A stretch of DNA of 64,000 nucleotides from a virus (Duplodnaviria; Caudoviricetes), in IMG/VR virus record IMGVR_UViG_3300014832_000004, positions 16,871 through 80,870 of that record; one strand, given 5' to 3'. The position numbers and the translations under genes are program-made. Below, in pieces: positions 1,300-45,172 of the stretch. The notes under the pieces were generated by a model. The model was given only the letters and a program-made list of their open reading frames with translations. It was not told where the DNA came from and searched no databases. The number at the start of each line of letters is the position of its first letter. Within the stretch, counting starts at the first letter, position 1.

Positions 1300-1358
1300 C
1301 CTGCGCGTAACAGGCAGGCGGACGCCTATTCTTCGGGCACACATTCGGAGCGATCGGC

Positions 1359-1979
1359 ATGGGATTTTCGGCGTCAAACATCGGCAGCCTGTCGCTGATC
1401 GGCCAGGCCGGCGGCGCGATCACCTCGGCCATCGGCAGCAAATTCGAAGCGGCCAGCAAGAAGTCGTCGCTGAACGCTCAGGCAGGGCTGGCGAACACGT
1501 CGGCGCGCATCGCTGAAACGAATGCGCGAATCGCCGAGCTTGGCGCGCAGACCGCGCTTCAGCAAGGCGAATCACAGGTTGCCAAGCTCACGCTTCAGGC
1601 TGGAAACCTCAAGGCGTCGCAGCGCACCACGATGGCCGCTAACGGAATCGACATCGGGCAAGGCAGCGCTGCCGAGTTGCAGGCTTCGACCGACATCATG
1701 AAAGAGATCGACGCCAACACGTTGACCGCCAACGCTATCCGGCACGCCTTCGGCTACCAAACGCAAGCGACAAATGCCCGGACGCAAGGCGTGAATGCCA
1801 GAAACGCAGCCTTGGCGCAGCAGGCTGCGGCAAGCGGAATATCGCCCGGAATGGCCGGCGCAACTTCGCTTCTCGGCAGCGCAACCAAGGTTGCGGCATC
1901 GTGGTACGGGATGAACAAGGCCGGGGTGTTCGACAAGCCGCCGAAGGTTGATGATGAAGACATCGGGATGAGCTACTGA
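1359..1979 (+). CDS. Internal virion (ejection) protein, small
   Basis: Ala/Gln/Gly-rich 206 aa; position after tail tube B; stop overlaps next start. Confidence 0.65.
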   Translation: MGFSASNIGSLSLIGQAGGAITSAIGSKFEAASKKSSLNAQAGLANTSARIAETNARIAELGAQTALQQGESQVAKLTLQAGNLKASQRTTMAANGIDIGQGSAAELQASTDIMKEIDANTLTANAIRHAFGYQTQATNARTQGVNARNAALAQQAAASGISPGMAGATSLLGSATKVAASWYGMNKAGVFDKPPKVDDEDIGMSY

Positions 1980-4162
1980 TGGCTCGCGTTCCGACATACG
2001 ACAGCCAACAGGTTACGGCGAGCGCATTGCCGGCGTCTCAGTTCGGCGCTGTGACATCGCCAACCGTCCCGAACTTCGCGGCAGAGCAAGCGCAGCAGGC
2101 TGGCCAGGCCATGCAACAGGCTGGCGCCGTTGGCGGGCAGATCGCGCTCGACATGCAGACCGAGGCGAACCATCTGCGCGTTGTCGACGCTGCCAATCAG
2201 GCCAAGGAAGCGTCTTTCGATCTTCTGTACCACAAGGAAACTGGCGCGCTCAACCAGCGCGGATGGTCTGCACTGAGCCGTGAAAGCGGGAAAGACCTTG
2301 CCTCCGAATACGCCGAGAGGTTCCGGGAAGTCACTGACAAGATTGCCGCCGGGCTCGGCAACGACGCGCAGCGAAAAGTTTTCGCGCAGCAGGCGGCGAA
2401 CATGCGCACAAGCCTGTACGGGCAGACACGCAGCCATCTGAGCAGTGAATTTCAGCGGTACAAGGTCAGCACGTTCGACGCGACGGCAGCTACCGCGAGC
2501 CGGGAAATCGCGCTTGTCGGAGCGAGCGGAAAGATACCCGTCGATCAAGAGACTGGGCGCAGCCAGATCGACGACGCTGCCGACCGCATCATCGCCGTTA
2601 CCCGCGAGAAGGCACGCATGGTCGGGCTTTCTCAGGAAGAAGCGGACGTGCAAGCGCAGCGCGTGTTGAGCGGGGCGCACGTGCTGGCGATTCAGGGGGC
2701 GGTCGAGAGTGGGAACATCCAGTTCGCGGCGGCCTACGTCGACCGCTACAAGGGCCAGATGGAGGCCGGCGACCTCCTGCGTGTGCGCGGGGTCATGGAT
2801 AAACAGGTTCAGGCGCAGCGGACCATGGCAGCGGTCGACAGCGCAACCAAGGAAATGCGGCCGCGCTTCTTCGGGAGCGACATAGATCGTGCTTTCAGCG
2901 TTGCGATCATGGCCGAGTCTGGTGGGAAGCAGTTTGCCGCCGACGGCACGCCGCTGACCAGCAAGGCCGGGGCAATCGGCATCGCGCAAGTCATGCCGGC
3001 CACCGGTCCGGAAGCAGCCAAACTCGCTGGCATGCCGTGGGATGAGCACCGGTACCGGACCGATGAGAGCTACAACCGGGCGATTGGAATGGCCTACTTC
3101 AATGAGCAGGTTCGGGTGAATTCCGGCGATCTGCAAAAGGCGTGGGCGGCCTACAACGCCGGTCCTGGCGCGCTCAAGGAGGCGGTCAAGAAGGCCGATA
3201 AGTCCGCCAAGTTGGCGCAGAATGACCCGTCCATCGCTGCCGTTCCGTGGCTGCAGTTCCTCCCGAAAGAGACTCGCGAGTACGTCACCAAGAACAGCAA
3301 GGCATACGAGTCTGGCGCAGGCAGGGCCAAGGAACCGACGGCCCTTGAGTTCGTGCAGGCTTCGGTGTCAAGGCTTGGTCCAGACGCGGACGCAGAGCAG
3401 ATCAGATCGACGCGAATCAGTGCCGAGCACCAGTACAAGCTGATCACCGACGAGAAGAAGCAGCGGAACGACGACAACTTCCTGGCTGCGCAAGATGCGC
3501 TTGTGCGCAACGGAGGAAACTTCGCTGGGCTTTCTGCTTTCGTGCGCGAGGCAATACCGGCTGACAGAATGGATGACGTGCTGACATTCGCCGGGAAGCT
3601 GGCAAGTGGCGTGCCGATAGAAACCAACTGGAACACCTATTCACGGCTGGTAAGCATGGCCACCGTCGCCCCAGCAGAATTCAGTTCCACAAACCTCATG
3701 CTACATCGTGGGCAATTGGCGCCGCCACAGATCAAGCAACTGATCGACATGCAGGCAAAGGTCAACGATCCGGCGCAGCGGCCCGAAGTGGCTACGCTGG
3801 CACAGCAGCTTGCCACGGCGCACAATCAGCTTGGATTCAAAGCGAACAACCATGAACAGAAGGGGATGTTCGATTCGGCAGTCATGGCCGCCATTGCTGA
3901 CGAGACGCGCACCAAAGGGCGAGCGCTGACGTTCGAGGAACGAGACAAGATCATCAAGCGAATGATGTTGCCGACAGGTGGATTGTGGTTATCGACAGAT
4001 CGACTGTACGAGGTTGCAGGGACGGCGAAGGAAAAGTCCGCCGTGGTGAAGATGTCCAGCGATGAGCGCGCGATGATCGCCGACAGCCTTTTGAGAAGGG
4101 GCGAGAAGCCGACCGAAGAAAAAATACTTGCCTTGTTCAAGCGGCGCTACGGGATCAACTGA
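1979..4162 (+). CDS. Internal virion protein with lytic transglycosylase (SLT) domain
   Basis: AESGG, GAIGIAQVMPAT, AAYNAGPG and PKETREYV SLT motifs. Confidence 0.8.
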   Translation: MARVPTYDSQQVTASALPASQFGAVTSPTVPNFAAEQAQQAGQAMQQAGAVGGQIALDMQTEANHLRVVDAANQAKEASFDLLYHKETGALNQRGWSALSRESGKDLASEYAERFREVTDKIAAGLGNDAQRKVFAQQAANMRTSLYGQTRSHLSSEFQRYKVSTFDATAATASREIALVGASGKIPVDQETGRSQIDDAADRIIAVTREKARMVGLSQEEADVQAQRVLSGAHVLAIQGAVESGNIQFAAAYVDRYKGQMEAGDLLRVRGVMDKQVQAQRTMAAVDSATKEMRPRFFGSDIDRAFSVAIMAESGGKQFAADGTPLTSKAGAIGIAQVMPATGPEAAKLAGMPWDEHRYRTDESYNRAIGMAYFNEQVRVNSGDLQKAWAAYNAGPGALKEAVKKADKSAKLAQNDPSIAAVPWLQFLPKETREYVTKNSKAYESGAGRAKEPTALEFVQASVSRLGPDADAEQIRSTRISAEHQYKLITDEKKQRNDDNFLAAQDALVRNGGNFAGLSAFVREAIPADRMDDVLTFAGKLASGVPIETNWNTYSRLVSMATVAPAEFSSTNLMLHRGQLAPPQIKQLIDMQAKVNDPAQRPEVATLAQQLATAHNQLGFKANNHEQKGMFDSAVMAAIADETRTKGRALTFEERDKIIKRMMLPTGGLWLSTDRLYEVAGTAKEKSAVVKMSSDERAMIADSLLRRGEKPTEEKILALFKRRYGIN

Positions 4163-7100
4163 TGGCCAACCCATACGACGACATTTCACTGACAGGGGCT
4201 GCAGCGAAGCCTTCCGGGAACCCCTACGACGCGATCCCGTTGCGCGATCCGTCAGATGTTCGCGGAGCCCTCGTCAGTGCCATGAATGCCAACCCGGATG
4301 CGGCGGGGCGAGCAGCACGGCTGGCCCGACAGATTGGATCGCCGGCTGCCGCAGTCGAGGCGCACTTGCCCGAAGTCGAATCGATCGTCAAGGTCGACTA
4401 CTACGCCAAGATGATTGAGCGCGCGCCGCGCACCGAAGATTTTCTGCGCAACCCAGACAAGGCCAGGATGGCGCATGACGATGTTGAAAATCTGTCAGCG
4501 TGGGAGTCTGCCGGGCAGTTCCTGAAGAACAGTGGAAAGGCCCTGGCATCCGGCGTCCCGGCATTCAACGAAGGATTCTGGGGTGTCGGCCAGGCCGGTG
4601 GCGAAGTGCTATCGAAACTGACTAAGCCGCTTGTCGGCATAGGGCTTCCTGATGTCGGCGACAGCGCAGCGCAGTTCTTCGGCGATCAACGAAAGATATC
4701 TCAGGCGATCAAGCAGTCGCTCATGACTGTTCCAGAGGGAAACATTTCAGCCGGGTGGTACTCTGGCCTTCAGTCTCTCACGATGAACATGCTGACGCTT
4801 CCTGCTGCGTTCATGTCAGGGAATCCTGTGCTGTCACTCGTGCCGATGGCCGCAACAACTGGCGGTCAGGCATACGGGCAAGCGCGGGACAAGGGAGTAG
4901 GCGTTGGTTCTTCTTTGGCGTTCGGCGCATCGCAGGCGGCAATTGAATACGCTACCGAGAAGCTGCCCGTCGCGTGGTTGTTGAAAGACATCAAAGCCGG
5001 GGCTGGGTTTGGCAAGATGCTTGGAAGGCAGATGCTGGCGGAAGTGCCTGGCGAGCAGGCAGCAACAGCATTACAGGATCTGAACGAGTGGGCAGTTCTC
5101 AACCCTCAAAAGCCGTTCGCTGACTACATCAAGGAACGCCCAGGCGCATTTGTCCAGACTCTTGTTGCAACCATGGTCGGAGCGGGCGGGCAGGTCGGAA
5201 CGATCAAGTTGGCTGATATGGCTATCCAGGCCGCGCAGGCGAAAGAGCAGCAAGCCGTTGAAGCAGGTAAAGCAGGCCAACTACTTGCCGAAATGAACAA
5301 ACTTGCTGCGGCGTCGAAGGTCCGCGAGCGAGATCCTGAAACGGCACGCGAGTTCTTCCAAAGCATCCTCGATGACGGCAACGACTCTGTCTGGATCACG
5401 CCGGACGCCCTGGCGCAGTCCGGCATGGCCGAACAAATGGCACAGGCTATCCCGGCAGTTGCCGAGCAGCTTGGATCCGCCTCGCAGACTGGTCACGACA
5501 TCCGTATCCCGGTGGCAGACCTCATGGCGACAATGGCCGGGCCAGATCTTGCGCAATCGATCCTTCAGCACGTGGCAACAGAGCCTGGTGGCTTCACTAC
5601 GACCACTGCCGAAGAGTACATGCAGAGCGGCAAGGCCGAAGAACTGAAGGCAGAAATTGATCGCGTACTTGGCGAAAAGGATGGCGACGACTCCTTCGCA
5701 GCCAGTTCGCAGGAAGTTGAGGACGCCGTCTTCGCCGAGTTGCAGAGCGCAGGTCGGCATGCGGAATCGGTGAATAGAACGGATGCGATACTGCACCGGC
5801 ACTTCTTCAGCGTCATGGCAGCCAAACTTGGCGAAATGCCGAAGGCTTTGTTTGACCGGTATGCTATCCGGGTGGTGGCAAAGGCTGGCGGAGATGATGG
5901 TAGTCTGGACCAAACGGCCTGGCATGGAACGCCGCACGTGTGGGAGCCAGAGCCTGGCTTCCCTCACGGGAGGCCACGGCTGGACAAGATGGGAACTGGC
6001 GAGGGAGCGCAGGCTTACGGGTGGGGGTGGTACTCGGCGGAAGCGGATGGAGTGGCGAACGAATATGCCGCGAAACTGGCAAAACCTGTCGTCTTGTTCA
6101 ACGGCGTTCGTGCGAAAGATTTGAAGGTGTCTGAAAGGGCGAAGCAGCTTGCGGAGTGGATAGAAAGCCGGTCCGGAGCAATGCAGTACGGCCACCAAGG
6201 AGATTCAGCAAGGGCAGACTTCGCAAGGCTCCCGCAAGACGTCAAGGAAGAGCTTGGCAACGTAGATGTTTACGACGGAGGGACGCTGTACAAACTCGAC
6301 ATCCCGGACGATGTGCTGCCGCACTTACTGGACTGGGACCGTCCGCTGAGCGAGCAGCCTGAAGTTCTTGCCGCCCTGGAAACAGACCCGCAAATGGGCA
6401 AGTCCTCCATCGGCTGGCGCGGCGCCCCCAGCGGGGCATGGGAGCGCGCGATGGGCGGCAAGTCGCGAAACGGCGAATGGCTCTACCGTGAAATAACGAA
6501 CAACGACCAGAAGGCTGCAAGCGCTGCCTTGCGTGCTCTCGGCATCCCCGGCCTGCGCTACCTCGATGGCAACAGCCGTGCCGACGGCAAAGGAACCTAC
6601 AACTATGTGATATGGGACCAGCCGACGCTCGACCGCATTGCGCTGTTGGAGCGCAACGGGGAGAAACTGGACGCGATTCGAGAGGCGAACATTCTGCGCC
6701 AATCCGACCAGTCGCCACGCGGCACATTCAGCCCTTCGAAGAACACCATAGCGCTTCTCAAGGACGCGAACCTATCGACCTTCCTGCACGAGTCTGGGCA
6801 TTTCTTCCTGGAGGTTATGGCCGATCTCGCATCTCAGCCGATGGCGCCAGCCGCCGTGCAGCAAGACATGCATGCCATCCTCGACTGGTTCGGCGTCGCT
6901 GACATGCCAACGTGGGCGAATCTCGAATTCGAGGAGCGTCGGTCATATCACGAGAAGTTCGCGCGCGGGTTCGAGTTGTACTTGGCCGAGGGCAAGGCGC
7001 CATCGATCGAGCTGCATGGCGTGTTTCAGAGGTTCCGCGCTTGGCTGCTGAAGGTCTACACGTCGCTCAAGTCGCTGAACGTTTCCCTGACACCAGAAGT

Positions 7101-10100
7101 GCGCGGCGTTTTCGACCGGATGCTGGCAACAACCGAAGACATCAAGCAGGCGGAACAGGCCCGAAGCATGATCAATCTGTTTTCGACGGCAGAACAAGCG
7201 GGCATGAGCCAAGAAGACTTCGCCGCCTATCACGCGCTTGGTACGGATGCGACGAACGTCGCAATCGAGGAACTTCAGGCGCGAGGCATGCGCGACATGC
7301 AATGGATAAAGAATGCTCGCGTCCGCGTGCTGAAGAAGTTGCAACAGGAGTCGAAGGCCAAGCGTGCAGAGGTCAAGATGACTGCCCGCCGTGATGTGAT
7401 GAGCCAGCCTGTATATCGCGCGTGGCAGTTCCTGACGGCCAAGATCGGTGCGGATGATGTGGTCGACGTGGCGGCGAAGCCAAAGAGCGATCCTCGCGAA
7501 CTGAATCCTGAAACCGATTCGCTGTTCAAGGCAATTGCCAAGCTCGGCGGTATCAACAAGGCTGAAGCCGTCAGCACGTGGGGGACCGATCCGGCCGACA
7601 AGCCAACCAGCGGCGTGTTCGGTATGCCGGTGTGGCGCGTCGAAGGCGGACTATCTATCGACGGCATGGCAGAGGCACTTGCACAGCACGGATACCTGAC
7701 GCAAGACGAAAACGGCAGGGTCGACGTGCGCGAGCTGGAACAGTTGTTCGCCGATGAGCTTAGAGGGAGCCCGCAGTATTCCAACGCCGTCGACGCGTCG
7801 TCGATGATGGACCAGCCGCCGAAAGCTGGCGAAGACATGGCCAACCATGGCGGGCTGCGTGCTGGCCGTCTGAACCTCGACGGATTGCGTGACACGTCGC
7901 TATCGAGCGACCAGATAGAGGTCTTGAAGGCCCGCAGGATGACCGCTGCCGGCGGCTTGCACCCGGATGTCGTCGCCGAACTGTTCCCCGAGTTCGGGAG
8001 TGGTGATGCGCTTGTTCAGGCGCTCGTCGCAGCAGTTCCTCCGCTCGAAATGATAGATGCGCTGACCGATCAGCGAATGCTTGAGCAATTCGGCGAACTG
8101 TCTTCGCCGGAAGCAATCGCGCAAGCCGCCGATATGGCGATCCACAATGAAGTCAGGGCCAGGGCCATTGCGACCGAGCTTGCGACGCTCGAAAAGGCGC
8201 TCAATGTGCGCGGGGATGCCGGGAATGATCGGAACGGCAGGAGGCGGACGTTCGCCGTTCTGCCGGCGGCCGCTCGGGAGTTTTCGAATGCGATGATCAG
8301 CCGCCTGAAAATCCGCGACATCAAGCCTGCGCAATACTCCGGATCTGCGGCGCGTGCTGGTCGTGCGGCAGCAAAGGCTGAGAAGTCCGGCGACATCGAA
8401 ACGGCGGCATCGGAGAAGAGGACTCAACTGCTGAACATCTATGCCACCCGTGCGGCGCATGAAGCCATCGAGGAAGCGAGGAAGATCGATGAGTTCTTCC
8501 GCCGGGTAATCGGCGGCAAGGATGCGACGGTAGGGAAGTCTCGCGACATGGATTTGGTGAATGCCGCGCGGGCGGTGCTGGCAGCGTATGGCTACGGCGG
8601 CAAGGCAAAGTCCGCCGTCGCGTATGTGGAGGTCGTTCAGAAGAATGATCCCACATGGATGGCCGACGTGATCCGCAAAGCAGTTGAAGAAGCGGAAGCC
8701 AACGGCAAGCCGATCAAGGATCTGACGCTCGATGAGTTGCGGGCACTGAAGGAAGATGTTGATGCTCTATGGCACTTGGCTGAGCGCAGCCGGACGATGG
8801 AGATCGACGGCGTGCTGATGGACCGAAAGACCGTTGCGGATGCGCTGTTCAGGCGCATGCAAGAGCTTGGGATTACGCAGCATGCCCCAGGAGAATCAAG
8901 CGCAATCACTGACGACGAAATGCGCGCGATGAATTTCTCATCCATCAAGGCCATTCTGCGGCGCGTCGAATCGTGGGTCGATCAGCAGGACGGCGGGGAG
9001 AGGTTCGGGCCGTTCCGGCGATACCTTTGGACACCGATCAAGGATGCCGCTGACGCCTACCGAGCAGCGAAGGCCGAAAGGCTGCGCGCTTTCCGGGATG
9101 CGTTCTTGGCGATCGCTCCGTCCATGACTCGTTGTCTGGTCGCTGCGCCAGAGCTTGGCTACACCTTCGGCAAAGAATCCGGCGGGGTGGCCATGAACGA
9201 GATCCTGCATGCGATCCTGCACACCGGAAACGAAAGCAATAAGCGCAAGCTGTTGGTCGGCAGAGGATGGGCATCCGTATTGCCCGGCGGGGCCATCGAC
9301 ACCGGCCGGTGGGATGCGTTCGTCGCTCGCATGATCGACTCAGGCAAGCTCACAAAGGCGCACTACGACTTTGCCCAGAAGGTTTGGGACCAGATGGAGG
9401 CGATGAAGCCTGCGGCGCAGCAGGCGCACCGAGACGCTACAGGCAAGTACTTCGAAGAGGTTACAGCTACTCCGTTCGTTACTCCGTTTGGCGCCTACCG
9501 TGGAGGCTACGTTCCTGCGATGGTGGACAGCCGAATCGTCAAGGACATGGAGTTGAAAAAGCTGGTCGAAGAAGGGAATGATGGCATGTCCTACGTGTTC
9601 CCGAGCACCAGCAAGGGGTTCACGAAATCGCGCGTCGAATACAACAGACCTTTGTTGCTCGACATGCGATCCTTGCCGCAGCATATCGACAGGGTGCTGC
9701 TCTTCTCGCATCTTGAGGTTCCGATACGCGACGCCGCCCGGCTGATCGGATTCGAACCTGTTGCCGACGCGATTAACCGACGCGATCATGGGGCGATCAC
9801 TGGCATGTTGCGCCCGTGGCTGAACCGCACGGCACGGCAACAGGTAACGACGCCAATAGCCGGCGCCGGATTCATGACGGGAATGGTCAACACGATTCGA
9901 AACCGTACCAGCATGGCATATATGTTCGCCAACGTCAGCAACGCGGCGCAGCAGATCACTGGAGTGCTTCTGGCCGGGCTGAAGGTCAGGCCGTCAAGCC
10001 TTGCGTCTGCCACGGCGCGCTACATCAATGCGCCGCGCGAAACTGCCGCCGAAGTGTCTAGGCTGTCGCCCTACATGGCGCACCGGATGGATGGCGAGGT

Positions 10101-10995
10101 GCATGCGATGCTTGGCGAGATCGAAAGCATCATGATCGATCCGACGCTGTACGAACGGGCTCAGGAATGGACGAAACGGCATTCGTTCTTCCTTCAGCAA
10201 GCGGTTGATAACGTCATGGGGCCGATCATCTGGATGGGGGCATACAACGAGGCGATGGAGGAAAAGTTCAACCCGAAGGATGCAGCCAGGCTGGCAGATT
10301 CTGTCATCCGGCAGACACAAGGAAGCTCGCTGCCGGAGGACATCAGCAGAATCGAATCCGGTCCGGCCTATGCCAGGCTGTTCACGCAGTTCGCCGGCTA
10401 TTTCAACATGCAGGCGAACCTGCTCGGCAGCGAGATCGGGAAGGTAATGCAAGAGGCCGGGCTGAAGAAGGGTGCTGGACGTATGGCTTATATCCTGCTG
10501 CTCGGCTTTTACGCCCCGGCCTTGGTTGCCGAGGCCGTCGCGCAGATGTTCAAGGGAGGCCCTGGCGACGACGACAAGGACGGTGAATACCTGGATGACT
10601 GGCTGATGGCGCTGTTCGTCTATGGCCCGATGCGGAACATTACGGCCATGGTCCCTGTCGTTGGGGCGGCCGCAAACAGTGCCATCGCCCGGTTCAACGG
10701 CAACCCGGTTGATGACCGGATGAGCGTTGCGCCGGCTGTTGGTGCTATGGAAGCCGGCGCAGGCGTGCCGTTCGATCTCTACAAGGCGGTGAAGGGGGAG
10801 GGCGATGCACAGCGCGCGGTGCGCGACGTTTCGACGCTGATCTCCATCGCTACCGGGCTGCCGGCGCATGCCTTGGCCCGCCCGGTTGGATACGTGTCCG
10901 GTGTTGCGCAAGGAAAAACAGATCCCACCGGGGCTATCGATTTCACTCGTGGCGTTGTCACTGGCGCAGCGAGCCCGGAGAGTCGTGGGCGATAA
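4162..10995 (+). CDS. Large polyvalent ejection protein (2277 aa) with ART-like and HExxH domains
   Basis: Size and position; WHGT..GTGEGAQAYGWGWY segment; TFLHESGH motif. Confidence 0.75.
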   Translation: MANPYDDISLTGAAAKPSGNPYDAIPLRDPSDVRGALVSAMNANPDAAGRAARLARQIGSPAAAVEAHLPEVESIVKVDYYAKMIERAPRTEDFLRNPDKARMAHDDVENLSAWESAGQFLKNSGKALASGVPAFNEGFWGVGQAGGEVLSKLTKPLVGIGLPDVGDSAAQFFGDQRKISQAIKQSLMTVPEGNISAGWYSGLQSLTMNMLTLPAAFMSGNPVLSLVPMAATTGGQAYGQARDKGVGVGSSLAFGASQAAIEYATEKLPVAWLLKDIKAGAGFGKMLGRQMLAEVPGEQAATALQDLNEWAVLNPQKPFADYIKERPGAFVQTLVATMVGAGGQVGTIKLADMAIQAAQAKEQQAVEAGKAGQLLAEMNKLAAASKVRERDPETAREFFQSILDDGNDSVWITPDALAQSGMAEQMAQAIPAVAEQLGSASQTGHDIRIPVADLMATMAGPDLAQSILQHVATEPGGFTTTTAEEYMQSGKAEELKAEIDRVLGEKDGDDSFAASSQEVEDAVFAELQSAGRHAESVNRTDAILHRHFFSVMAAKLGEMPKALFDRYAIRVVAKAGGDDGSLDQTAWHGTPHVWEPEPGFPHGRPRLDKMGTGEGAQAYGWGWYSAEADGVANEYAAKLAKPVVLFNGVRAKDLKVSERAKQLAEWIESRSGAMQYGHQGDSARADFARLPQDVKEELGNVDVYDGGTLYKLDIPDDVLPHLLDWDRPLSEQPEVLAALETDPQMGKSSIGWRGAPSGAWERAMGGKSRNGEWLYREITNNDQKAASAALRALGIPGLRYLDGNSRADGKGTYNYVIWDQPTLDRIALLERNGEKLDAIREANILRQSDQSPRGTFSPSKNTIALLKDANLSTFLHESGHFFLEVMADLASQPMAPAAVQQDMHAILDWFGVADMPTWANLEFEERRSYHEKFARGFELYLAEGKAPSIELHGVFQRFRAWLLKVYTSLKSLNVSLTPEVRGVFDRMLATTEDIKQAEQARSMINLFSTAEQAGMSQEDFAAYHALGTDATNVAIEELQARGMRDMQWIKNARVRVLKKLQQESKAKRAEVKMTARRDVMSQPVYRAWQFLTAKIGADDVVDVAAKPKSDPRELNPETDSLFKAIAKLGGINKAEAVSTWGTDPADKPTSGVFGMPVWRVEGGLSIDGMAEALAQHGYLTQDENGRVDVRELEQLFADELRGSPQYSNAVDASSMMDQPPKAGEDMANHGGLRAGRLNLDGLRDTSLSSDQIEVLKARRMTAAGGLHPDVVAELFPEFGSGDALVQALVAAVPPLEMIDALTDQRMLEQFGELSSPEAIAQAADMAIHNEVRARAIATELATLEKALNVRGDAGNDRNGRRRTFAVLPAAAREFSNAMISRLKIRDIKPAQYSGSAARAGRAAAKAEKSGDIETAASEKRTQLLNIYATRAAHEAIEEARKIDEFFRRVIGGKDATVGKSRDMDLVNAARAVLAAYGYGGKAKSAVAYVEVVQKNDPTWMADVIRKAVEEAEANGKPIKDLTLDELRALKEDVDALWHLAERSRTMEIDGVLMDRKTVADALFRRMQELGITQHAPGESSAITDDEMRAMNFSSIKAILRRVESWVDQQDGGERFGPFRRYLWTPIKDAADAYRAAKAERLRAFRDAFLAIAPSMTRCLVAAPELGYTFGKESGGVAMNEILHAILHTGNESNKRKLLVGRGWASVLPGGAIDTGRWDAFVARMIDSGKLTKAHYDFAQKVWDQMEAMKPAAQQAHRDATGKYFEEVTATPFVTPFGAYRGGYVPAMVDSRIVKDMELKKLVEEGNDGMSYVFPSTSKGFTKSRVEYNRPLLLDMRSLPQHIDRVLLFSHLEVPIRDAARLIGFEPVADAINRRDHGAITGMLRPWLNRTARQQVTTPIAGAGFMTGMVNTIRNRTSMAYMFANVSNAAQQITGVLLAGLKVRPSSLASATARYINAPRETAAEVSRLSPYMAHRMDGEVHAMLGEIESIMIDPTLYERAQEWTKRHSFFLQQAVDNVMGPIIWMGAYNEAMEEKFNPKDAARLADSVIRQTQGSSLPEDISRIESGPAYARLFTQFAGYFNMQANLLGSEIGKVMQEAGLKKGAGRMAYILLLGFYAPALVAEAVAQMFKGGPGDDDKDGEYLDDWLMALFVYGPMRNITAMVPVVGAAANSAIARFNGNPVDDRMSVAPAVGAMEAGAGVPFDLYKAVKGEGDAQRAVRDVSTLISIATGLPAHALARPVGYVSGVAQGKTDPTGAIDFTRGVVTGAASPESRGR

Positions 10996-11055
10996 CGCTG
11001 CGCGTATCGCCATGGCAAAACAATACCCTGTCGGCTACTCATCAGGAGGCCGCGC

Positions 11056-13821
11056 ATGACCATTTCAAGCACCAGCCGAAAGGCCGGGCCATATGCCGGG
11101 AACGGTGTCACGGTTTCCTTCCCGTTCTCGTTCAAGGTGTTTTCGACATCTGATCTGCTTGTCACAGAAATCGATTCCGATGACAACGAAGAAACGCTGG
11201 CGCTGACGACGAATTACACGGTCGCGCTGAATGCCGACCAGAATGCAACGCCAGGCGGAACGATCACGCTGCCAGATGCGCTGCCAGTGGGGAACTCGCT
11301 GACGATCCGCACCAACATCCCGATCACGCAAACCATGGACTTGACCAACCAAGGGGGGTTTTACCCGACGGTAATCAACAACGCCATGGACCGGGCGACA
11401 ATCCAGATCCAGCAACTTGCCGAGATCGTCGGGCGATCCCCGGCGGTGTCGATCGGGTCCGGTCTGTCTGGCATCACAATCGAATCGCCAGGAGCCGGGG
11501 AATACCTGCGATGGAACCTTGCCGGCACGGCAATCGAAGCGACGGCCGCCGTCTACGACCTTGGCACGTTCATGCAGTCCGGGACTGGCTCCGTCGAGCG
11601 TTCGGCCATGAGCAAGATGGGCGAGCGTGTCAGCGTCAAGGACTTCGGAGCCGAAGGCAACGGCGTTGCCGACGACAGCGCGGCCTTCGCGCTGCTTGAG
11701 GCGGCGTACCCTGGACACCATGTCGACCTTGATGGGTTCGCCTATTCGGTCGCGGCGATCCCGACTGGCGCCAGGTATCACAACGGTAGTTTCGTCGTCG
11801 GTTCGGTCAAGACGGCGATGCGCGCCAAGCGACTGGACAACCCGATGGACGGGTCATCTCGGGTGGCTATCGGCGACGGGGCCATGCATTATTGGAGCGC
11901 AAGCGCCGTCTACAACCCAGCCGACGGGGTCATGATCGCGTTCCTTGATGCCGGATACAGGCATGACACGTCGGAATCTTCACCTCTGAACATCATGTTC
12001 TCGGAAGATCGCGGGGCATCATGGGTTGGGGAAAAAACGATTTACTCCGTCGACGGATGCGATGTGGCTGATGCAAAGGCTGGGGTCATGGGCAGCGGCA
12101 GGATTGGCGCGCTGGTGTCCATGCGCGGCGGGGCCATCAGCACCTACCGTAACGATTTTGTTTATTCCGACGATGACGGCGCCACATGGGATGCGATTGT
12201 CGGAGTCATTGCCGATGGCAGCGGGTCATTCGTTTACGGCGATATGCTTCCGTATCCAGCGGCGGTCGGCGGGCACGATACGACGGGGTTTGTGGTCTAC
12301 AGCTACACCGGCGGGATCATCTATGCCCTTACCACGATAAACAACGGGGCAACATGGTCGTCTTCAGCAGTTACCTCGTCTGCATCGTACACCGAGGCGT
12401 CCGTTGTCAGGGTCAACAACGAGAACAAGTGGCTGATGTTCATCCGCACAGGAGCCAACCTGTTTGTTTCCACGTCGGTGAACATGACGACATGGACAAC
12501 TCCGGTTGACTCCGGTATCGCGATCCTGTCAAACCCGGTCTACGCGTATATAACCGGCGGGCGGCTTTTCGTCTACGTCTTCTTGCGTGATTTCGCCCCA
12601 ACTGCGCTTGGTGTCGAGAATGAAATCATCCTGTTCGAAGACGATCCGGCTGCCGTTTATGCCGCTAGCGACCTTGTAAGCAAGGCATATCGCGTAGTTG
12701 TTGATGGCGTCGACCGCGCATTGGGGTACCTGAAAATCATGCCGGTCGGCAATGATCACGTTTGGATTTACACCGCTGGCGAATACGATGGATCGACGCT
12801 ATTTCCAGCGGCCACATCAATCGTTACAGGATCGACTAGGCGATCTCCTGGAGTCGGGAAAACATATGCCGATGCCCTGGCGTCAAACACGAATATTGTC
12901 CGAAACGGGACGTTCGATTTCTGGTCAAGGGGGACCAGTTTCACAGGGTTCACGGCGAACACGAACACGGCAGACGGATGGAAATTTCAGCCGTCCGGGG
13001 CCACTGTCACCGTTACGCAACGCGCCCTGACGCCCGCAGAATCTCTGCTATTTCCTTTTCATCCGCAGTTCGGCATGGAAATATCAGCCACGGCTGACAA
13101 CTCATCAGCGCTTGTTCAGCAGTGGTTCGGCACGTCGGAAATGACCATGATTGCCGACTCCTATGTATCCATCCAGGTTTGGGGAATAGGCGACGTGCCA
13201 AGCGCCGGGCTGCGCGCAGGCATCCAGTTCGATTATGGCGGCGGCGGCAGCGCGCTTGCCCAAACTGCCGCGCTCATGGAGTTTGCCGAAAGCGCGGATA
13301 ACGTTTGGAAAACTACCGCAGTTCTTCGCGCTCCAACGATGGTAGGGAAAACCATCGGGACAGATCCGAAGACGATATTTGTGCTTGGGAATTCGTCTGA
13401 GACAGAGGCTTGGGACGCAACGATCGTTGGCGTCAAATACGAGCTATCAAGCGCTCCGTCGCGTTTCCGTCCTATCGACTTGAGCGCCGAAAAGATGCGC
13501 TGCCAGAGGTATGTGCAAGCCATTCCATACGACTCAATCGATGCGGTTGGCGTGGCCTGTGCCGCTTCAACAGTTGCCGCATTCGCGACAATCGAATACC
13601 CGGCGATGGTTTCCGCTCCGTCTGTGTCGCTTCTGTCAGGCGCGGCTGGATCGTTCGAGGTCTACCCTCTCGGGTCGACGATTACAGCCGTGTCAGCGAG
13701 CAGTGTTGGCGTCAAGGCTACGGCAATTTCGATCACCACTACCGGCATGACGGCCGGTGACAGCTACCTCTTCAGGACCAAGGCGGCGTCCCCGGTAGTT
13801 TTCCTGCTGGACGCCGAGTAA
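11056..13821 (+). CDS. Tail spike/fibre with endosialidase-like N-extension and Asp-box (BNR) propeller
   Basis: T7-like N-terminal anchor; VKDFGAEGNGVADDSAAF; Asp-boxes SEDRGASW, SDDDGATW, TINNGATW. Confidence 0.75.
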   Translation: MTISSTSRKAGPYAGNGVTVSFPFSFKVFSTSDLLVTEIDSDDNEETLALTTNYTVALNADQNATPGGTITLPDALPVGNSLTIRTNIPITQTMDLTNQGGFYPTVINNAMDRATIQIQQLAEIVGRSPAVSIGSGLSGITIESPGAGEYLRWNLAGTAIEATAAVYDLGTFMQSGTGSVERSAMSKMGERVSVKDFGAEGNGVADDSAAFALLEAAYPGHHVDLDGFAYSVAAIPTGARYHNGSFVVGSVKTAMRAKRLDNPMDGSSRVAIGDGAMHYWSASAVYNPADGVMIAFLDAGYRHDTSESSPLNIMFSEDRGASWVGEKTIYSVDGCDVADAKAGVMGSGRIGALVSMRGGAISTYRNDFVYSDDDGATWDAIVGVIADGSGSFVYGDMLPYPAAVGGHDTTGFVVYSYTGGIIYALTTINNGATWSSSAVTSSASYTEASVVRVNNENKWLMFIRTGANLFVSTSVNMTTWTTPVDSGIAILSNPVYAYITGGRLFVYVFLRDFAPTALGVENEIILFEDDPAAVYAASDLVSKAYRVVVDGVDRALGYLKIMPVGNDHVWIYTAGEYDGSTLFPAATSIVTGSTRRSPGVGKTYADALASNTNIVRNGTFDFWSRGTSFTGFTANTNTADGWKFQPSGATVTVTQRALTPAESLLFPFHPQFGMEISATADNSSALVQQWFGTSEMTMIADSYVSIQVWGIGDVPSAGLRAGIQFDYGGGGSALAQTAALMEFAESADNVWKTTAVLRAPTMVGKTIGTDPKTIFVLGNSSETEAWDATIVGVKYELSSAPSRFRPIDLSAEKMRCQRYVQAIPYDSIDAVGVACAASTVAAFATIEYPAMVSAPSVSLLSGAAGSFEVYPLGSTITAVSASSVGVKATAISITTTGMTAGDSYLFRTKAASPVVFLLDAE

Positions 13822-14102
13822 TGACAGAGCGCGCGTATGGAGGCGAAGAGCGCCGGTCGTGGCAGTCAGAGGCAGCCGTGCTGCACGGGAAGCTTGAGAA
13901 TATCGAGACCTTGTCGAGAGAGACGCACGATTTGATAATCGGGCACTTAGCGGCTGAGATCGAAACCAAGGCGGCCATCGCTGAGCTGGTAATTCTGTGG
14001 CGTGGCAGCAAGATGATGGTGACTGCGTTCAAGGTCATCATCCCGATTGTTGCCGCCGCATTCGGCGCTGCGATGTGGGCGAAGGATCACTTCAAATGGT
14101 AG
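13821..14102 (+). CDS. Small membrane protein, probable lysis-cassette component
   Basis: Coiled N-terminus plus C-terminal hydrophobic helix; follows tail spike. Confidence 0.55.
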   Translation: MTERAYGGEERRSWQSEAAVLHGKLENIETLSRETHDLIIGHLAAEIETKAAIAELVILWRGSKMMVTAFKVIIPIVAAAFGAAMWAKDHFKW

Positions 14103-14278
14103 TCGAATACCTTATCGCCAGAGCGAAGGAGGCGTCTACCTGGCGCGGGATTGTTCTGATCGCCACCGCCTGCGGCGCGGTGCTGTCTCCTGAACAGCAG
14201 GATGCGATTGTGACCGTTGGGTTGCTGGTGGTTGGTCTGATCGGGGCTGCGATCTCCGACGAAAAAAGCCGCCCGTAG
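14096..14278 (+). CDS. Probable holin (2 TM, 60 aa)
   Basis: EASTWRG followed by two hydrophobic segments and a charged C-terminus. Confidence 0.6.
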   Translation: MVVEYLIARAKEASTWRGIVLIATACGAVLSPEQQDAIVTVGLLVVGLIGAAISDEKSRP

Positions 14279-14284
14279 GCGGCT
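14261..14284 (-). terminator. Intrinsic terminator of the leftward operon
   Basis: AGCCGCC-CGTA-GGCGGCT hairpin preceded by an A6 run on +. Confidence 0.75.
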
Positions 14285-14442
14285 TGGCGTGCGTGACTCG
14301 TTGGCATTGACGCAGTTGTCAGAATTTTTAGTGAACGCGCACATGCTCTAGCTTCCTGTTTCTGTTCGAAATCCAGCCGCGTAGGCACATGCATACAGAA
14401 TAATGACGCAAAGCTCTGCGTCAAATAGGATTGCTACATCAC

Positions 14443-14449
14443 GTTATAC
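14443..14449 (+). repeat. Leading R-type core box GTTATAC (attI-like or decayed attC)
   Basis: Exact complement of R'' GTATAAC of attC1 at 15214. Confidence 0.6.
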
Positions 14450-14453
14450 GTCT

Positions 14454-15197
14454 TCATGCGGTCAGTACCATTTGCACGGCCTGCCGCTCCCAATGTTGCA
14501 AACTCTGTTGCGCTTCAATCCGTTCGCGCATCACCAACGCACGAACGTCTTTTCCCTTCGGGGGGTATGTTCCGCGCCAGGCCGAATCAATGCCTATGTT
14601 CTGAGCAATATTCGTGCTGTCTGCGCTACTCAGCGGCAACCGCGTAAAAACCTCTGGATTAAGCATCCGAAGGCCATGCAGTTTCGTGATCGGCAGTCCA
14701 TCTTTTCCCGTCACAGCGTTCATGGCTTCGGCCATTCGGTTCCACCATTTGTCTGTTCCAACAGTGGCAAACTCTCCGCTGCTACCGAGGCATATCCGAG
14801 GCCAAGCATGTGCAAGCCTTTGTAGGCGTCCAATTGATTCGTGCATGTGCCAAACGGGTGCGCCAATGTGGGCATGTCTTGCCTTCCAAGGCCATTCGGA
14901 AACGAGGGCATCATTTGCTTGTTCATCGCCATCAATCACGTCCGGTATTACTGCAAAGTCAAACGATGGGGCGCGACAAATCTCATCAACCCATGCGTAG
15001 TAGCCGCCCCAATCCGTTATTGGTTGTCCGCTTTTCCATGCCGAGAAAGCGCCGTTGTCCACTGCAAAACTCTGGCAAATCTCAAGGGCCAAGCCGAGTT
15101 GGTCGGCGTACCGGAAGGAAACAAAGGCGTGCCCACCCCCAACGGCCGCGCAAGCTGCTGTCGCAGGCGTTATTGGTAGTCCGTGGTAATGAATCAT
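14454..15197 (-). CDS. TGT/DpdA-like (queuine tRNA-ribosyltransferase fold) protein, cassette A
   Basis: VDNGAF, IPDV, LHGLR, SADS motifs in TGT order; SD GGAGAGGA before ATG 15197. Confidence 0.65.
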   Translation of the reverse strand: MIHYHGLPITPATAACAAVGGGHAFVSFRYADQLGLALEICQSFAVDNGAFSAWKSGQPITDWGGYYAWVDEICRAPSFDFAVIPDVIDGDEQANDALVSEWPWKARHAHIGAPVWHMHESIGRLQRLAHAWPRICLGSSGEFATVGTDKWWNRMAEAMNAVTGKDGLPITKLHGLRMLNPEVFTRLPLSSADSTNIAQNIGIDSAWRGTYPPKGKDVRALVMRERIEAQQSLQHWERQAVQMVLTA

Positions 15198-15213
15198 TTC
15201 CTCTCCAAAATAC

Positions 15214-15276
15214 GTATAACCCATCGCTCCAGCGGGACGCGGCTAATCGCCGCGCCCCTGAGCTAGTGCGTTATGC
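15214..15276 (+). repeat. attC site 1 (63 bp)
   Basis: GTATAAC-CCATC-GCTCCAGC-(CGCGGC hairpin)-CCTGAGC-TAGTGC-GTTATGC; canonical 5 nt/8 nt/7 nt/6 nt layout. Confidence 0.9.
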
Positions 15277-15555
15277 CGCAGCAAAATTACTCATCACTAC
15301 GCCAGCCTCGCCTTCTGCCAGCAGTTCGGTGCAGGTTGAATACTTCGCGTCCTTCCACGGCTGGTTTGTGTCCGCCGTTTTGGTTGAAAGGAACTCGCCT
15401 AGGTTTTCATCGCCAGCTTCAGCGTGTGCGAGTGCGCGGGCCTCGTCTTCCGTTTCGGCGCGCACCACAAAGCCGAACGATTTGTCGTACCACGGTTCCC
15501 ACGGGTTGTCTTTCTTGTCCAACCCCTCCACGGGGCGCAGTATCCAAAGTTTCAT
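15271..15555 (-). CDS. Hypothetical protein, cassette B (94 aa)
   Basis: SD upstream; TAA stop coincides with the TTA of attC1 R'. Confidence 0.75.
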   Translation of the reverse strand: MKLWILRPVEGLDKKDNPWEPWYDKSFGFVVRAETEDEARALAHAEAGDENLGEFLSTKTADTNQPWKDAKYSTCTELLAEGEAGVVMSNFAAA

Positions 15556-15582
15556 TTCTTCTCCTTTCTCGCCGCCGCAGCG

Positions 15583-15651
15583 GCATAACCCTGCGTTCCA
15601 GCGGAGGCTGCGCCATGAAGCGGCGCATCCCCGCTGAACTCCACGTTAGGC
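15583..15651 (+). repeat. attC site 2 (69 bp)
   Basis: GCATAAC-CCTGC-GTTCCAGC-...-GCTGAAC-TCCAC-GTTAGGC. Confidence 0.9.
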
Positions 15652-16011
15652 AACGTGAGGCCCGCCGTGCTTTGCAATCGCCTCGTGCACGATCCGGCAT
15701 ACCTCTGGCATCTCACCGGCCAGCGAATACACGGCGCGCAGCGCCTCCACCAGTGCAATTACGTCGTCGCACTTGTCAGCCCACATGCCTTCACACACAC
15801 TGCGCGCATAGTGGTCGTTCTGGCACTCGGCGTCGTGCGGCTGGCGAAACACCGGAAACGCGCCCTCTGCGTCGCTGTCGCACAGGACAATTCGAGTCGG
15901 CCTCTCGTGCTTCGTCACATAGCGGCACCAAGCCACATGCGCGCTTGGAGCACGTTCCCTAACTATCGCTTCGAGCGGACCCGCAACAGCGGGCGCCGTT
16001 GTCTCACTCAT
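15646..16011 (-). CDS. Hypothetical protein, cassette C (121 aa)
   Basis: GGAG SD and ATG lie inside the attC3 loop; stop in attC2 R'. Confidence 0.65.
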   Translation of the reverse strand: MSETTAPAVAGPLEAIVRERAPSAHVAWCRYVTKHERPTRIVLCDSDAEGAFPVFRQPHDAECQNDHYARSVCEGMWADKCDDVIALVEALRAVYSLAGEMPEVCRIVHEAIAKHGGPHVA

Positions 16012-16058
16012 GGTCGTCTCCTGCCCGCTGTTGCGGGCCGTTCAAGCTAGCGTTCGGC
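15957..16058 (+). repeat. attC site 3 (102 bp)
   Basis: CCCTAAC-TATCG-CTTCGAGC-GGACCCGCAACAGCGGGC...GCCCGCTGTTGCGGGCC-GTTCAAG-CTAGC-GTTCGGC. Confidence 0.85.
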
Positions 16059-16354
16059 CCCATCCTTGCCAGGGCCACTCTTGCCGTCCAAGCGTCGCCG
16101 TTGTCTGTCCAGCTTGCGGCCATCGCCTCGCAGCACTTCTCGCACCAGCGATAGTTCCGCATGGCACCGTCAAAGGTCGCAGCCAGTGTTCTTACGCGCT
16201 CGCCTGGCTGAATCTCTTGCAGGCACATGCCGCAGGTTCCACCCTTTCGCGCCGTGACAATCTTGTCCTTCAGCACCTTGTCGCCTGGGCGGCCAAAGTC
16301 GCCCTCGAAAGGGTTGCATTTGAGGCAGTCGGTTTCTTGCGTCTCGGTCATCAT
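16004..16354 (-). CDS. Cys-rich phage hypothetical protein, cassette D
   Basis: VTARK..CxxC..IQPGE...CxxC pattern; similar to 57196-57471. Confidence 0.7.
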   Translation of the reverse strand: MMTETQETDCLKCNPFEGDFGRPGDKVLKDKIVTARKGGTCGMCLQEIQPGERVRTLAATFDGAMRNYRWCEKCCEAMAASWTDNGDAWTARVALARMGPNASLNGPQQRAGDDHE

Positions 16355-16593
16355 TCACCTCCTGGGGCCGAACCATGCGCTCGAAGGGATCTGCGCGATA
16401 AGGCGTGCGCAGCCCGGACACGATATTGAAGCGTGATCGGGAAGTCCCACTCGTTCAGTTCTGGTTCGATCTCGCGCAGGAGCAGTTCAAACGCCTCGCG
16501 CTTGCGGCGCTCAAGATCCAGATCGTCATTTAGCCGAACAATCTCCGCCACGCACTCTCCGTGCTGGTCTCCGTCTGGTTATTCGTCAAACAT
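16351..16593 (-). pseudogene. Accessory gene with in-frame TAA at codon 5
   Basis: MFDE*PDGDQHGECVAEI versus MSFDEQPDGDPHGECAAEI at 57157; SD AAGGA upstream. Confidence 0.65.
16367..16441 (+). repeat. attC site 4, right half degenerate
   Basis: GCCGAAC-CATGC-GCTCGAAG plus TGCGC hairpin; R'' complements attC3 R'; no intact GTT box. Confidence 0.6.
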
Positions 16594-16665
16594 CGTTTTT
16601 CCTTTTGTAGTTGAAATAATCGACACCATTTTGTTGGCGCCGCCTAAATGGTTTCCTTCTGGTCA

Positions 16666-18433: not shown

Positions 18434-18649
18434 GCGATTTTCTCCATTGGATGCTGTTGAAGGCGCGCCGCACGCAATAGCTGCGGGCGATGCTGATTGC
18501 CGTGTAAATTGCGCCAATCGCCATGTTGTCGGACAGGCTTATGGCGATGCCGAAGGCCGGCATTATCGCCGCGTTGGCAATAAGCGATACTAACCGATCG
18601 CCACATTTGCCGCCGACTCAACGGCGCTCTGTGTTCTGGTCTGGCTCAT
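18420..18649 (-). pseudogene. Small 2-TM phage membrane protein with a 1-nt frameshift
   Basis: MSQTRTQSAVESAANVAIG stops at 18590; adjacent frame continues LVSLIANAAIMPAFG..SIARSYCVRRAFN; ATGA overlap with helicase stop. Confidence 0.6.
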
Positions 18650-20025
18650 GCTGATGTCGCCAAGAATGCAGGGATGGATACGCGATTGCCGGCGGCGTAC
18701 TCGTTTGTGTTCTTGCGCGCTCCAAGAACCGAATCACGGACGGCGGCAAGTGTTTCAGAAGCCATCTTGGCTGCCATGTCCTGCGCCGCATCCTGCTTGC
18801 GCTTGATGTTGGCGACGACGGATCCATCCTGGTTGCTGGCGAATACATGGATATGAACCGGGCGCTTTTGGCCGAATCGCCATGATCGGCGGATGGCCTG
18901 GTAGAAGCCCTCGTAGCTGTCGTTGACGCCGACGAATGCTTGATTGGCGCAGTGCTGGAAATTCAGCCCCCATCCGCAGATCTTCTGCTTGCTGATGAGG
19001 ACGCGATGTTGTCCAGCCGAGAACCCGACCATTCTCGCCTCCTTGATGTCGTTATCGTCGGAGCCGGCTACTTGCACAGACCCTGGAATTGCTTTTTCGA
19101 GCATGTCGCCTTCGTCGTTAAGGTCACACCAGACGATCCACGGGGCGCTGTCTGAATTGACCAGATCTGCGCACGCCTTGACACGCTGCGCCATGCTGTC
19201 GCGCCTTGCCTGCCGGCGCTCGGTGAGCGTCTGTGCTTCCATGGCGAACAAGCCATGCGCAGAGTTGTGCTCGATTTCGACCGTGTGCTGATGGATATTG
19301 AGCGGCGGGAGGTCGTAGGCTCTGGCGTCGTAGCCAAGATCCGCCGGGCTGCGAATCATGGCTCCCCACGATGCAACCCACCGCCAGAACACTTGCCTGG
19401 CATGGCCCTTCAGCCGCCAAACGCTTGTATCCCCGCCGTCGTGGACGAAGAATTCGGCCAGCATTTCAGCACGGCTGCGCACCCCGAGGAATTCCGCATG
19501 CGTTCCCAACTCCGTCCAGTCGTTCGGGCTCGGCGTCGCCGTGCAGCAGAGCTTGTACGGCGTGTGTCGGAATGCGGCTATGAGCAGCGCCAGCGTGCGG
19601 CTGGCGTGCGATTTGATGATGCTCGACTCGTCAAGAGCAACGCCTGAGAACTGCGACATATTGAACCTGTGCATGCGGTCGTAGTTGGTAATGTTGATGC
19701 CGGCCACCACGTCTTGAGCTTCGCGGCAGTGCGTTACTTTGGTTCCCATAATCCGGGCCTCTGAAACGAACTGCTGAGCGACGGCCAGCGGACACAGGAT
19801 GATGACCGGCCTACCTGAGTGCGCCGTGACGGCATCTGCCCACGCGATGGCCATGCGCATCTTGCCCAGCCCGGTGTCGGCAAAAATTGCGGCTCGACCG
19901 CGGCGCAGAGCCCATGCGGTTAGGTCCCGCTGGTGCGGGAACAAATCGTAACCGCGCAATGGCGTGTCAATGCCAGCGGACGCGACGACGCCGATCTTGT
20001 TTCGGATGAACTTGGAGTAGGTCAT
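18646..20025 (-). CDS. SNF2-like SF2 helicase
   Basis: ADTGLGK, LDESS, CTATP, GLNFQ, QAIRRSWRFGQ. Confidence 0.88.
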   Translation of the reverse strand: MTYSKFIRNKIGVVASAGIDTPLRGYDLFPHQRDLTAWALRRGRAAIFADTGLGKMRMAIAWADAVTAHSGRPVIILCPLAVAQQFVSEARIMGTKVTHCREAQDVVAGINITNYDRMHRFNMSQFSGVALDESSIIKSHASRTLALLIAAFRHTPYKLCCTATPSPNDWTELGTHAEFLGVRSRAEMLAEFFVHDGGDTSVWRLKGHARQVFWRWVASWGAMIRSPADLGYDARAYDLPPLNIHQHTVEIEHNSAHGLFAMEAQTLTERRQARRDSMAQRVKACADLVNSDSAPWIVWCDLNDEGDMLEKAIPGSVQVAGSDDNDIKEARMVGFSAGQHRVLISKQKICGWGLNFQHCANQAFVGVNDSYEGFYQAIRRSWRFGQKRPVHIHVFASNQDGSVVANIKRKQDAAQDMAAKMASETLAAVRDSVLGARKNTNEYAAGNRVSIPAFLATSA

Positions 20026-27519: not shown

Positions 27520-27692
27520 CTCCCCAACAGAAACGCCTAATCCGCCCGCTGACGCGCCAGCACCCCGCCGCACAAGTCGTTCTCACGGCAGGAGCGATCG
27601 CCATCGGACCGCTGCTGGTCGTGTGCGACTGGCTGTGCGAGTACGGCGAGACGTTCGCTGAAGTGATGCGGCCAACTGGACTGCGGCCGTGA
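27516..27692 (+). CDS. Hypothetical protein (58 aa, not in ORF track)
   Basis: ATGA overlap upstream, GTGA overlap with helicase start. Confidence 0.5.
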   Translation: MTPQQKRLIRPLTRQHPAAQVVLTAGAIAIGPLLVVCDWLCEYGETFAEVMRPTGLRP

Positions 27693-36079: not shown

Positions 36080-36361
36080 ATGGAAGTACAGCGGGAAAAA
36101 ACGGGACGATTCGGTGTTGGGAATCCAGGAAAGCCGAAAGGAGCCACGCGCAAGGTGACTCGCACCGCGCTTGAGGCTATTGCTCTCGCGGCAGACAAGC
36201 TTGGCGGCGCAGAGCGCCTTGTCGAGTGGGCGCAAGAAGACCCCGAGAACGAGCGTGCATTTTGGGTGCATATCTATCCCAAGCTTTTGCCGCTGCAGCT
36301 CACTGGCGCGGACGCGGGTCCGATCGAGTTTTCATGGTTGGAACACGCAGACAGGTCTTGA
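36080..36361 (+). CDS. Terminase small subunit
   Basis: GRF..GNPGKPKG; precedes large terminase. Confidence 0.7.
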   Translation: MEVQREKTGRFGVGNPGKPKGATRKVTRTALEAIALAADKLGGAERLVEWAQEDPENERAFWVHIYPKLLPLQLTGADAGPIEFSWLEHADRS

Positions 36362-37958: not shown

Positions 37959-37960
37959 GC

Positions 37961-40072: not shown

Positions 40073-40090
40073 TGACTCGTGGAGCACTCC

Positions 40091-40888: not shown

Positions 40889-40919
40889 TCAACTCGCATT
40901 TACAAGGAAATTTTGAAAA

Positions 40920-42125: not shown

Positions 42126-42156
42126 TTCGCATTTCTGATCATCAAGGAGCTACAAC

Positions 42157-42552: not shown

Positions 42553-42555
42553 CAA

Positions 42556-43260: not shown

Positions 43261-43262
43261 GC

Positions 43263-44696: not shown

Positions 44697-44708
44697 GGAC
44701 TTCATCAC

Positions 44709-45164: not shown

Positions 45165-45172
45165 GGGCGCAG

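Follow-up and report, generated by a model that had tools for sequence, protein, structure and literature searches.

Model-based orientation places the cassette genes of an integrase-less attC array on the attC bottom strand in a P22-like phage

The array and its genes

Four genes arranged as cassettes, with attC-type sites between them, lie at the distal 3' end of a long leftward phage operon (Table 1). The window, which is the whole stretch of 64,000 nucleotides that was analyzed, corresponds to bases 16871-80870 of the 80.9-kb record IMGVR_UViG_3300014832_000004 (IMG/VR virus, Caudoviricetes). The portal, coat and terminase of this phage are P22-like, and so are all of its closest deposited relatives, namely uncultured Manatee Spring phages, EBPR podovirus 1 and Rhodoferax phage P26218. 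From about position 25850 down to 14454 every gene is read leftward from the - strand, including those for RecT, an SbcC-like ATPase, an SNF2 helicase, a DNA methylase and small regulators, and the array forms the final 2 kb of this operon (14443-16441). The first-pass annotation of this DNA had matched the four cassette genes to the leftward transcript of the phage, and this was borne out by the position of the array inside the operon and by the terminator-like hairpins at its end. A promoter consensus scan found no promoter-like site within the array.

Another terminator-like hairpin (16621-16642, - strand), directly upstream of the array, separates a 131-aa HTH gene from the 66-aa ORF; should it work as a terminator, expression of the array would require anti-termination or a promoter overlooked by the consensus scan. 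The record carries two structural-gene blocks (window 1-14000 and 36226-55454) and two SNF2 helicase paralogues on opposite strands, 18646-20025(-) and 27689-29068(+). Although its completeness was estimated at 100%, it may therefore be an assembly chimera or a joining of two related phage genomes; the attC array is confined to the first of the two structural units.

Table 1. Array features and operon end, in window positions
Feature	Position	Strand	Remarks
terminator-like hairpin	14266-14285	-	with T run; closes the leftward operon
terminator-like hairpin	14404-14423	-	just past the array
lone R' box GTTATAC	14443-14449	+	array boundary, without attC body to its left; attI-like position in integron terms
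cassette A	14444-15270	-	DpdA-like gene 14454-15197 (to 15224 from first ATG)
attC1	15214-15276	top strand +, recombinogenic bottom strand -	R''/R' GTATAAC/GTTATGC; textbook site
cassette B	15271-15645	-	94-aa ORF 15271-15555
attC2	15583-15651	+	R''/R' GCATAAC/GTTAGGC; textbook site
cassette C	15646-16052	-	121-aa ORF 15646-16011
attC3	15957-16058	+	102 nt, long loop; R''/R' CCCTAAC/GTTCGGC; stop codon absent from R'
cassette D body	16053-16365	-	116-aa zinc-ribbon-like ORF 16004-16354, reads through R' into attC3
66-aa ORF	16351-16551	-	end overlaps attC4 remnant
attC4 remnant	16366-16441	+	L''/R'' half retained, L'/R' half decayed; R'' GCCGAAC 16366-16372

Genes were called by a codon model together with homology. 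The codon log-odds ranged from +21 to +31 in A-D and reached +14 in the 66-aa ORF, against -60 to +6 in the overlapping ORFs of the + strand. ORF A belongs to the DpdA/queuine tRNA-ribosyltransferase family (phrog_887, E 6e-69; 47 viral relatives), and ORF D matched phrog_19515 (E 1e-16; six viral homologues). A tblastn search against all related loci collected found no homologues of B, C, the 66-aa ORF or the 131-aa ORF, and a scan of genome contigs found no relatives of the DpdA protein. The start of A is most likely Met10 (15197), behind GGAGAGG and 17 nt past attC1, the first ATG (15224) being within attC1; B starts 28 nt past attC2. Along the direction of transcription, a cassette reads as an attC hairpin leader, about 20 nt with a Shine-Dalgarno (SD) sequence, and the ORF, whose stop coincides with or is close to the conserved TAA|C of the next R' box.

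GC-rich DNA such as this yields long + strand ORFs as well, for example 15273-15962, and these would fit a bacterial array fragment that was passively captured, with its true genes on the + strand and the - strand ORFs hitch-hikers or spurious. However, the codon scores of the + strand ORFs were negative or only +6, on the - strand DpdA and D match phage families strongly, and the cargo is of phage type, which makes such a capture extremely improbable. Spurious - strand ORFs were ruled out by the codon scores and the phage-family matches.

Identity and orientation of the attC sites

The top strand of three imperfect palindromes lies on the + strand and reads xxTAAC, spacer, L'' plus one extra base, loop, L', spacer and GTTRRRY. 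All three (attC1-attC3) carry inverted R'' and R' boxes with the conserved AAC...GTT (RYYYAAC/GTTRRRY) of attC sites. Folding of single strands gave attC-type hairpins for each of them, with the - strand more stable, and in attC1 and attC2 a single bulged G and a bulged T were found on the 3' arm of the - strand, which equals the extra L'' base on +. The asymmetric L'' box by which the sites had originally been placed on the + strand thus corresponds to the bulged bases of the - strand in attC1 and attC2.

Orientation was then determined with a covariance model, R2, which was purpose-built because Rfam holds no attC family; an Rfam search found no family matching the window hairpins. R2 was made from 19 sites of the window and related viral contigs, all on the bulge-bearing strand, and contains no bacterial sites. 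An earlier model, R1, based on an RNAalifold consensus, contained zero base pairs and was discarded. R2 scored attC1 at 61.5 bits on the - strand and 6.8 on the +, and attC2 at 56.9 bits on the - strand and 8.4 on the +; model E-values of 1e-12 to 1e-15, together with the absence of further R2 matches elsewhere in the 80.9-kb record, ruled out chance. The score of attC3 was marginal (15.5 bits, E 0.16), but its folding was strong (z -4.6 and -5.3), and it also fits the chain of complementary R boxes described below. The attC4 sequence reached only 3.6 bits, as a partial match, and its fold z was -0.7 and -1.4, so it was rejected as a functional site on both counts; because it is recognizable in its L''/R'' half only, it was treated as a decayed terminal site. 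Given the weak attC3 and the decayed attC4, part of the array may no longer be mobile.

Typically, though not by strict definition, the gene of a bacterial cassette precedes its attC and is carried on the top strand of that site. Class 1 integrons were used as controls. The aadA1 attC of plasmid R100, folded with the same script, had its bulged G and T opposite the aadA1 coding strand. R2 matched class 1 attC sites at E 1e-4 to 8e-10 (26-46 bits), namely the aadA1 attC (two plasmids; best match, 8e-10), the aac(6')-IIc attC (two plasmids) and the blaIMP-1 attC, and all five matches (5/5) were opposite the strand of the annotated cassette gene. The window sites, however, were matched on the gene-sense (-) strand. 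R2 matches lie opposite the gene in class 1 integrons but on the gene-sense strand here; the window sites are therefore members of the classical attC family, and the orientation of the genes with respect to them is reversed. By this model-based orientation, the cassette genes of the window are on the recombinogenic attC bottom strand, inverted in comparison with those of bacterial integrons. The first-pass annotation had put the attC top strand on + and all cassette genes on -, which the class 1 controls confirmed, and had named model-based orientation as the result that could overturn it; the model agreed with it. In Tetrasphaera phage TJE1, a published carrier of a CALIN (a cluster of attC sites lacking an integron integrase), R2 found zero matches, R2 being specific to the proteobacterial site type.

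Cassette boundaries, junctions and integrase

On the + strand, the first six bases of a cassette are those that follow the G of an R' box, and its own attC forms its end. At 14444, TTATAC complements the R'' box of attC1 at 7/7 positions, TTATGC (15271) that of attC2 at 7/7, and TTAGGC (15646) that of attC3 at 6/7, while TTCGGC (16053) complements R'' GCCGAAC of the attC4 remnant at 7/7. Judged from the sequence, this R-box complementarity is a circular-permutation signature of crossover between the G and the TT. The same signature was seen in related arrays, where R'' and the R' at the far end of its cassette matched in each of the 4 variable positions for 47/55 non-redundant cassettes. The mean R''/R' match was 3.82/4 within the same cassette, 2.51 within the same site, and 2.31 +/- 0.10 under random pairing. 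In addition, homology of the dpdA cassette to loci L001-L003 extends over window 15273-14442, in comparison with 15270-14444 for the cassette, and the flanking cassettes differ. Past cassette exchange at the canonical crossover is shown by these data.

Cassette genes overprint the sites. The stop codon of B (15271-15273) is the TTA of R' box GTTATGC and that of C (15646-15648) is the TTA of R' box GTTAGGC, each flush with the cassette end, and the ATG of C (16011-16009) lies with its upstream AGGAG inside the 28-nt loop of attC3 (arms 15980-15994 and 16023-16037); these placements had been proposed before and were all found in the sequence. The R' box that follows D lacks a TAA, and D therefore continues within attC3, which encodes its final 16 codons (16052-16004). 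When D was aligned with five homologues, the sequences were conserved as far as Asn101, encoded by the AAC of R', and beyond that had unrelated tails of 1 to 17 residues, the tail sequence depending on which attC follows. Since the tails vary with the following attC, protein ends encoded by attC are real but are context-dependent by-products. The earlier view that attC3 and attC4 are translated as protein ends therefore holds for the tail of D, and the 66-aa ORF does overlap attC4, but attC4 is a decayed half-site.

The first-pass annotation had explained the reversal as a way of keeping translational coupling intact across cassette junctions in phage operons. Such coupling was seen at the D/C junction, where the genes overlap by 8 nt (ATGAGTGA), and at the junction of the 66-aa ORF with D, with an overlap of 4 nt (ATGA); across related arrays, the longest ORF begins inside an attC in about half of the cassettes. 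However, untranslated attC hairpin gaps of 90 nt separate C from B and of 73 nt separate B from A, and B and A each have their own SD. In related arrays many starts lie 20-25 nt past R''. The stops of related arrays coincide with the R' TAA in about 1/3 of cases and lie inside the next attC in about 1/3, the remainder being earlier, so that most are at or before R'. Overlaps would be equally possible in the canonical orientation. Because coupling is found at only 2/4 window junctions and most stops and starts in the arrays are uncoupled, coupling is not the reason for the reversal; as an explanation it is improbable.

Searches for recombination and expression elements were negative. The integron-integrase profile TIGR02249 had zero matches in the 80.9-kb record, no tyrosine recombinase was found in the related array-bearing phage records G001, G002 and G004, two of which are 93-100% complete, and neither a recognized attI nor a recognized Pc was found in the window array. 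As it has no intI, attI or Pc, the array is a CALIN and not a complete integron. Beyond the last R' box of arrays (window 14380-14449; loci L018, L001, L052, L016 and L050), AAC, about 5 nt and GTAGAC or GTTAGAC often follow. This border motif, which resembles a pair of inverted R boxes in minimal form, is a possible attI-like simple site; the available text of Qi et al. (PMC9892861) also mentions inverted motifs of the type GTTRRRY at the borders of CALINs.

An integron integrase above the curated cut-off was found in 4/5 Betaproteobacteria genomes carrying this site type. Because the phage has no intI and genomes with this site type do, we infer that a host enzyme acts in trans. The lack of an integron integrase in the phage, and of a matching family in Rfam, would also fit attC look-alikes, that is, a phage-specific intergenic repeat serving as terminators or as the substrate of another recombinase. 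Yet R2, a phage-derived model, finds classical attC sites at E-values down to 8e-10, IntI chemistry agrees with the extrahelical G and T, with the crossover signature and with homology breaks located exactly at cassette ends, the same site type fills arrays in IntI-encoding genomes, and IntI1 recombines attC sites from other phages, according to the available text of Qi et al. (PMC9892861). An intergenic repeat of this kind is highly improbable. These data established the identity of the sites, their orientation and the cassette boundaries, and we put at about 0.8 the probability that the locus is an integrase-less array (CALIN) of four cassettes in the distal leftward early operon of a P22-like phage, with its genes on the attC bottom strand.

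Polarity in viral and bacterial arrays

Orientation was surveyed in two samples. The first consisted of 53 viral loci recruited by homologues of A or D; R2 matches were on the gene-sense strand in 80/81 cases, and the cassette calls were 46 bottom strand, 1 top strand and 7 unclear. The second sample was independent of the genes: viral and bacterial collections were searched with one degenerate site pattern, followed by R2 and the same ORF caller. On 36 viral contigs, 65 cassettes were inverted, none was canonical and 10 were unclear, in comparison with 43 canonical, 13 inverted and 33 unclear cassettes in the bacterial collection, mostly from Betaproteobacteria and Xanthomonadales. The difference between viral (65:0) and bacterial (13:43) cassettes was significant (Fisher's p 1.6e-21). 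The first-pass annotation had proposed this comparison of phages with chromosomes, and its result accords with the polarity seen in the window. In MW202573, a published CALIN carrier, five R2 matches were on the same strand as the deposited CDS, so that its array is inverted as well; it is a relative of P22-like type, with 44% portal identity. The reversal is thus clade-wide, and domestication, the word used in the first-pass annotation, is a fair label for it, whatever its cause.

Eight of the 13 inverted bacterial cassettes (8/13) came from two short MAG contigs that are reversed throughout, L075:2137-4253 (Roseateles) and L122 (Thiobacillus), which may be phage DNA inside MAG bins. In these two arrays stops lie in the R' TAA, and a DNA methyltransferase is encoded by one of the cassettes. 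When the ORFs on either side of the L075 array were scanned against PHROG, nothing was found outside the cassettes.

The viral contigs may largely form one broad clade, and shared ancestry may explain part of the 65:0 ratio. Carried to its end, this would be a founder effect only, in which an ancestral array entered the lineage reversed and its polarity was inherited without mechanistic or selective reason. The homologue-recruited loci come mostly from phages sharing the dpdA or D gene, the closest deposited relatives are all P22-like, and none of the tests demonstrated an advantage. However, the pattern-only sample of 36 contigs was also 65:0, MW202573 is inverted at only 44% portal identity, and cassette content turns over, yet the phage arrays are without a canonical cassette. 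A founder effect alone is therefore unlikely, though it keeps some weight.

The arrays were compared with known systems. CALINs in phage genomes were published by Qi et al. in 2023 (PMC9892861), with MW202573 among them. As described in the available text, they are likewise bounded by attC sites and integrase-less, with cargo that includes DNA methyltransferases; that text is silent on the gene strand, whereas bottom-strand genes were found here in 65/65 scorable viral cassettes. No paper stating a systematic inversion of phage arrays was found in the literature searched. The arrays of bacteria (class 1 and the sedentary arrays of Betaproteobacteria and Xanthomonadales) have the same site architecture, site type, crossover point and circular-permutation signature as the window, but the window has no intI, recognized attI or Pc, its genes are on the opposite strand, and transcription comes in at the end distal to the attI-like one and proceeds toward it, unlike in bacterial integrons.

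Single reversed cassettes occur in chromosomal integrons, where they are typically toxin-antitoxin cassettes with their own promoters. They likewise carry an opposite-strand gene within an attC-bounded cassette, but they are isolated within canonical arrays, whereas the window cassettes are all reversed and promoterless and would be transcribed from an external phage promoter. The 'ea' or moron regions of lambdoid and P22-like phages have the same position at the end of the leftward operon and similar cargo, and DpdA-like genes adjoin ea genes in BTP1, SfI and other phages. Variation of ea and moron regions is attributed to illegitimate or homologous recombination, in contrast with the window, whose units are bounded by site-specific recombination sites. 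Across the arrays, the cargo was of phage type, with many DNA-modification genes, and included N6/N4 and other DNA methyltransferases and genes of Mom-like, DpdA-like, PAPS-reductase-like, radical SAM and HNH nuclease types.

In such phages, promoterless cassettes would be expressed by read-through from a phage promoter and mobilized by a host integron integrase, and the phages would hold a cassette pool of their own, mostly of DNA-modification genes and small genes of no assigned function. Canonical host cassettes entering the array would be antisense and silent and would soon be lost. The viral arrays contained no canonical cassette and about 3/4 of the scorable bacterial cassettes were canonical, which indicates either that cassettes seldom pass from hosts into phage arrays or that silent DNA is lost rapidly; phage and host cassette pools are separate in practice.

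As to why the genes are reversed, the reading that we favour, tentatively, is one of replication polarity. With the bottom strand on the lagging-strand template, excision goes from <7e-5 to ~3e-2 (PMC13108822). If the leftward operon is replicated co-directionally, by analogy with lambdoid phages, an array inside a long operon running with replication would be unable to flip, and coding on the bottom strand would put the folding strand on the lagging, non-template side and thereby favour exchange within one infection. Insulation from host cassettes is unlikely as the cause, but is worth keeping in mind. Equally tentative is a mirror-image integron economy, with a phage-only pool of bottom-strand cassettes that the host integrase shuffles and a polarity that provides both mutual silencing and, because the strand that folds would be the sense, lagging-template strand, fast exchange during a single infection. 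If this were true, defence systems and toxins of the host would be silent in the phage, and phage cassettes would be silent in host integrons.

In integron theory, the selectivity for the bottom strand serves insertion in sense orientation behind Pc. A large set of phage arrays with the same sites and every gene reversed shows that the recombination system is separable from the logic of expression. Two cassette pools served by one enzyme are implied, which bears on trade between phage and host, including that of anti-restriction and defence genes. Integron annotation pipelines that expect co-oriented genes may mis-annotate phage arrays.

These arrays also offer material for the open questions of cassette origin and of attC folding in vivo by replication versus transcription polarity. 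At L004:4904-5650, L005:5991-6744 and L006:4456-5209, a dpdA-like gene belongs to an ordinary operon in which start and stop codons overlap, and attC is absent. The operon form and the cassette form (window 14444-15270) of dpdA share 78% nucleotide and 81% amino-acid identity. This pair is possibly a before-and-after view of cassette genesis, and, should the mirror-image economy be true, a route to the unsolved question of cassette birth. On a viral contig (L218:629-2123), 4.7 tandem copies of a 316-nt unit (91% matches) contain an attC match each and appear as an amplified cassette. Near-identical attC sites of 68 nt were found behind different cassettes and on different contigs (L002:4648-4715 and 7074-7141, L003:8750-8817 and L048:649-716), and this recurrence resembles the site homogeneity of sedentary chromosomal integrons.
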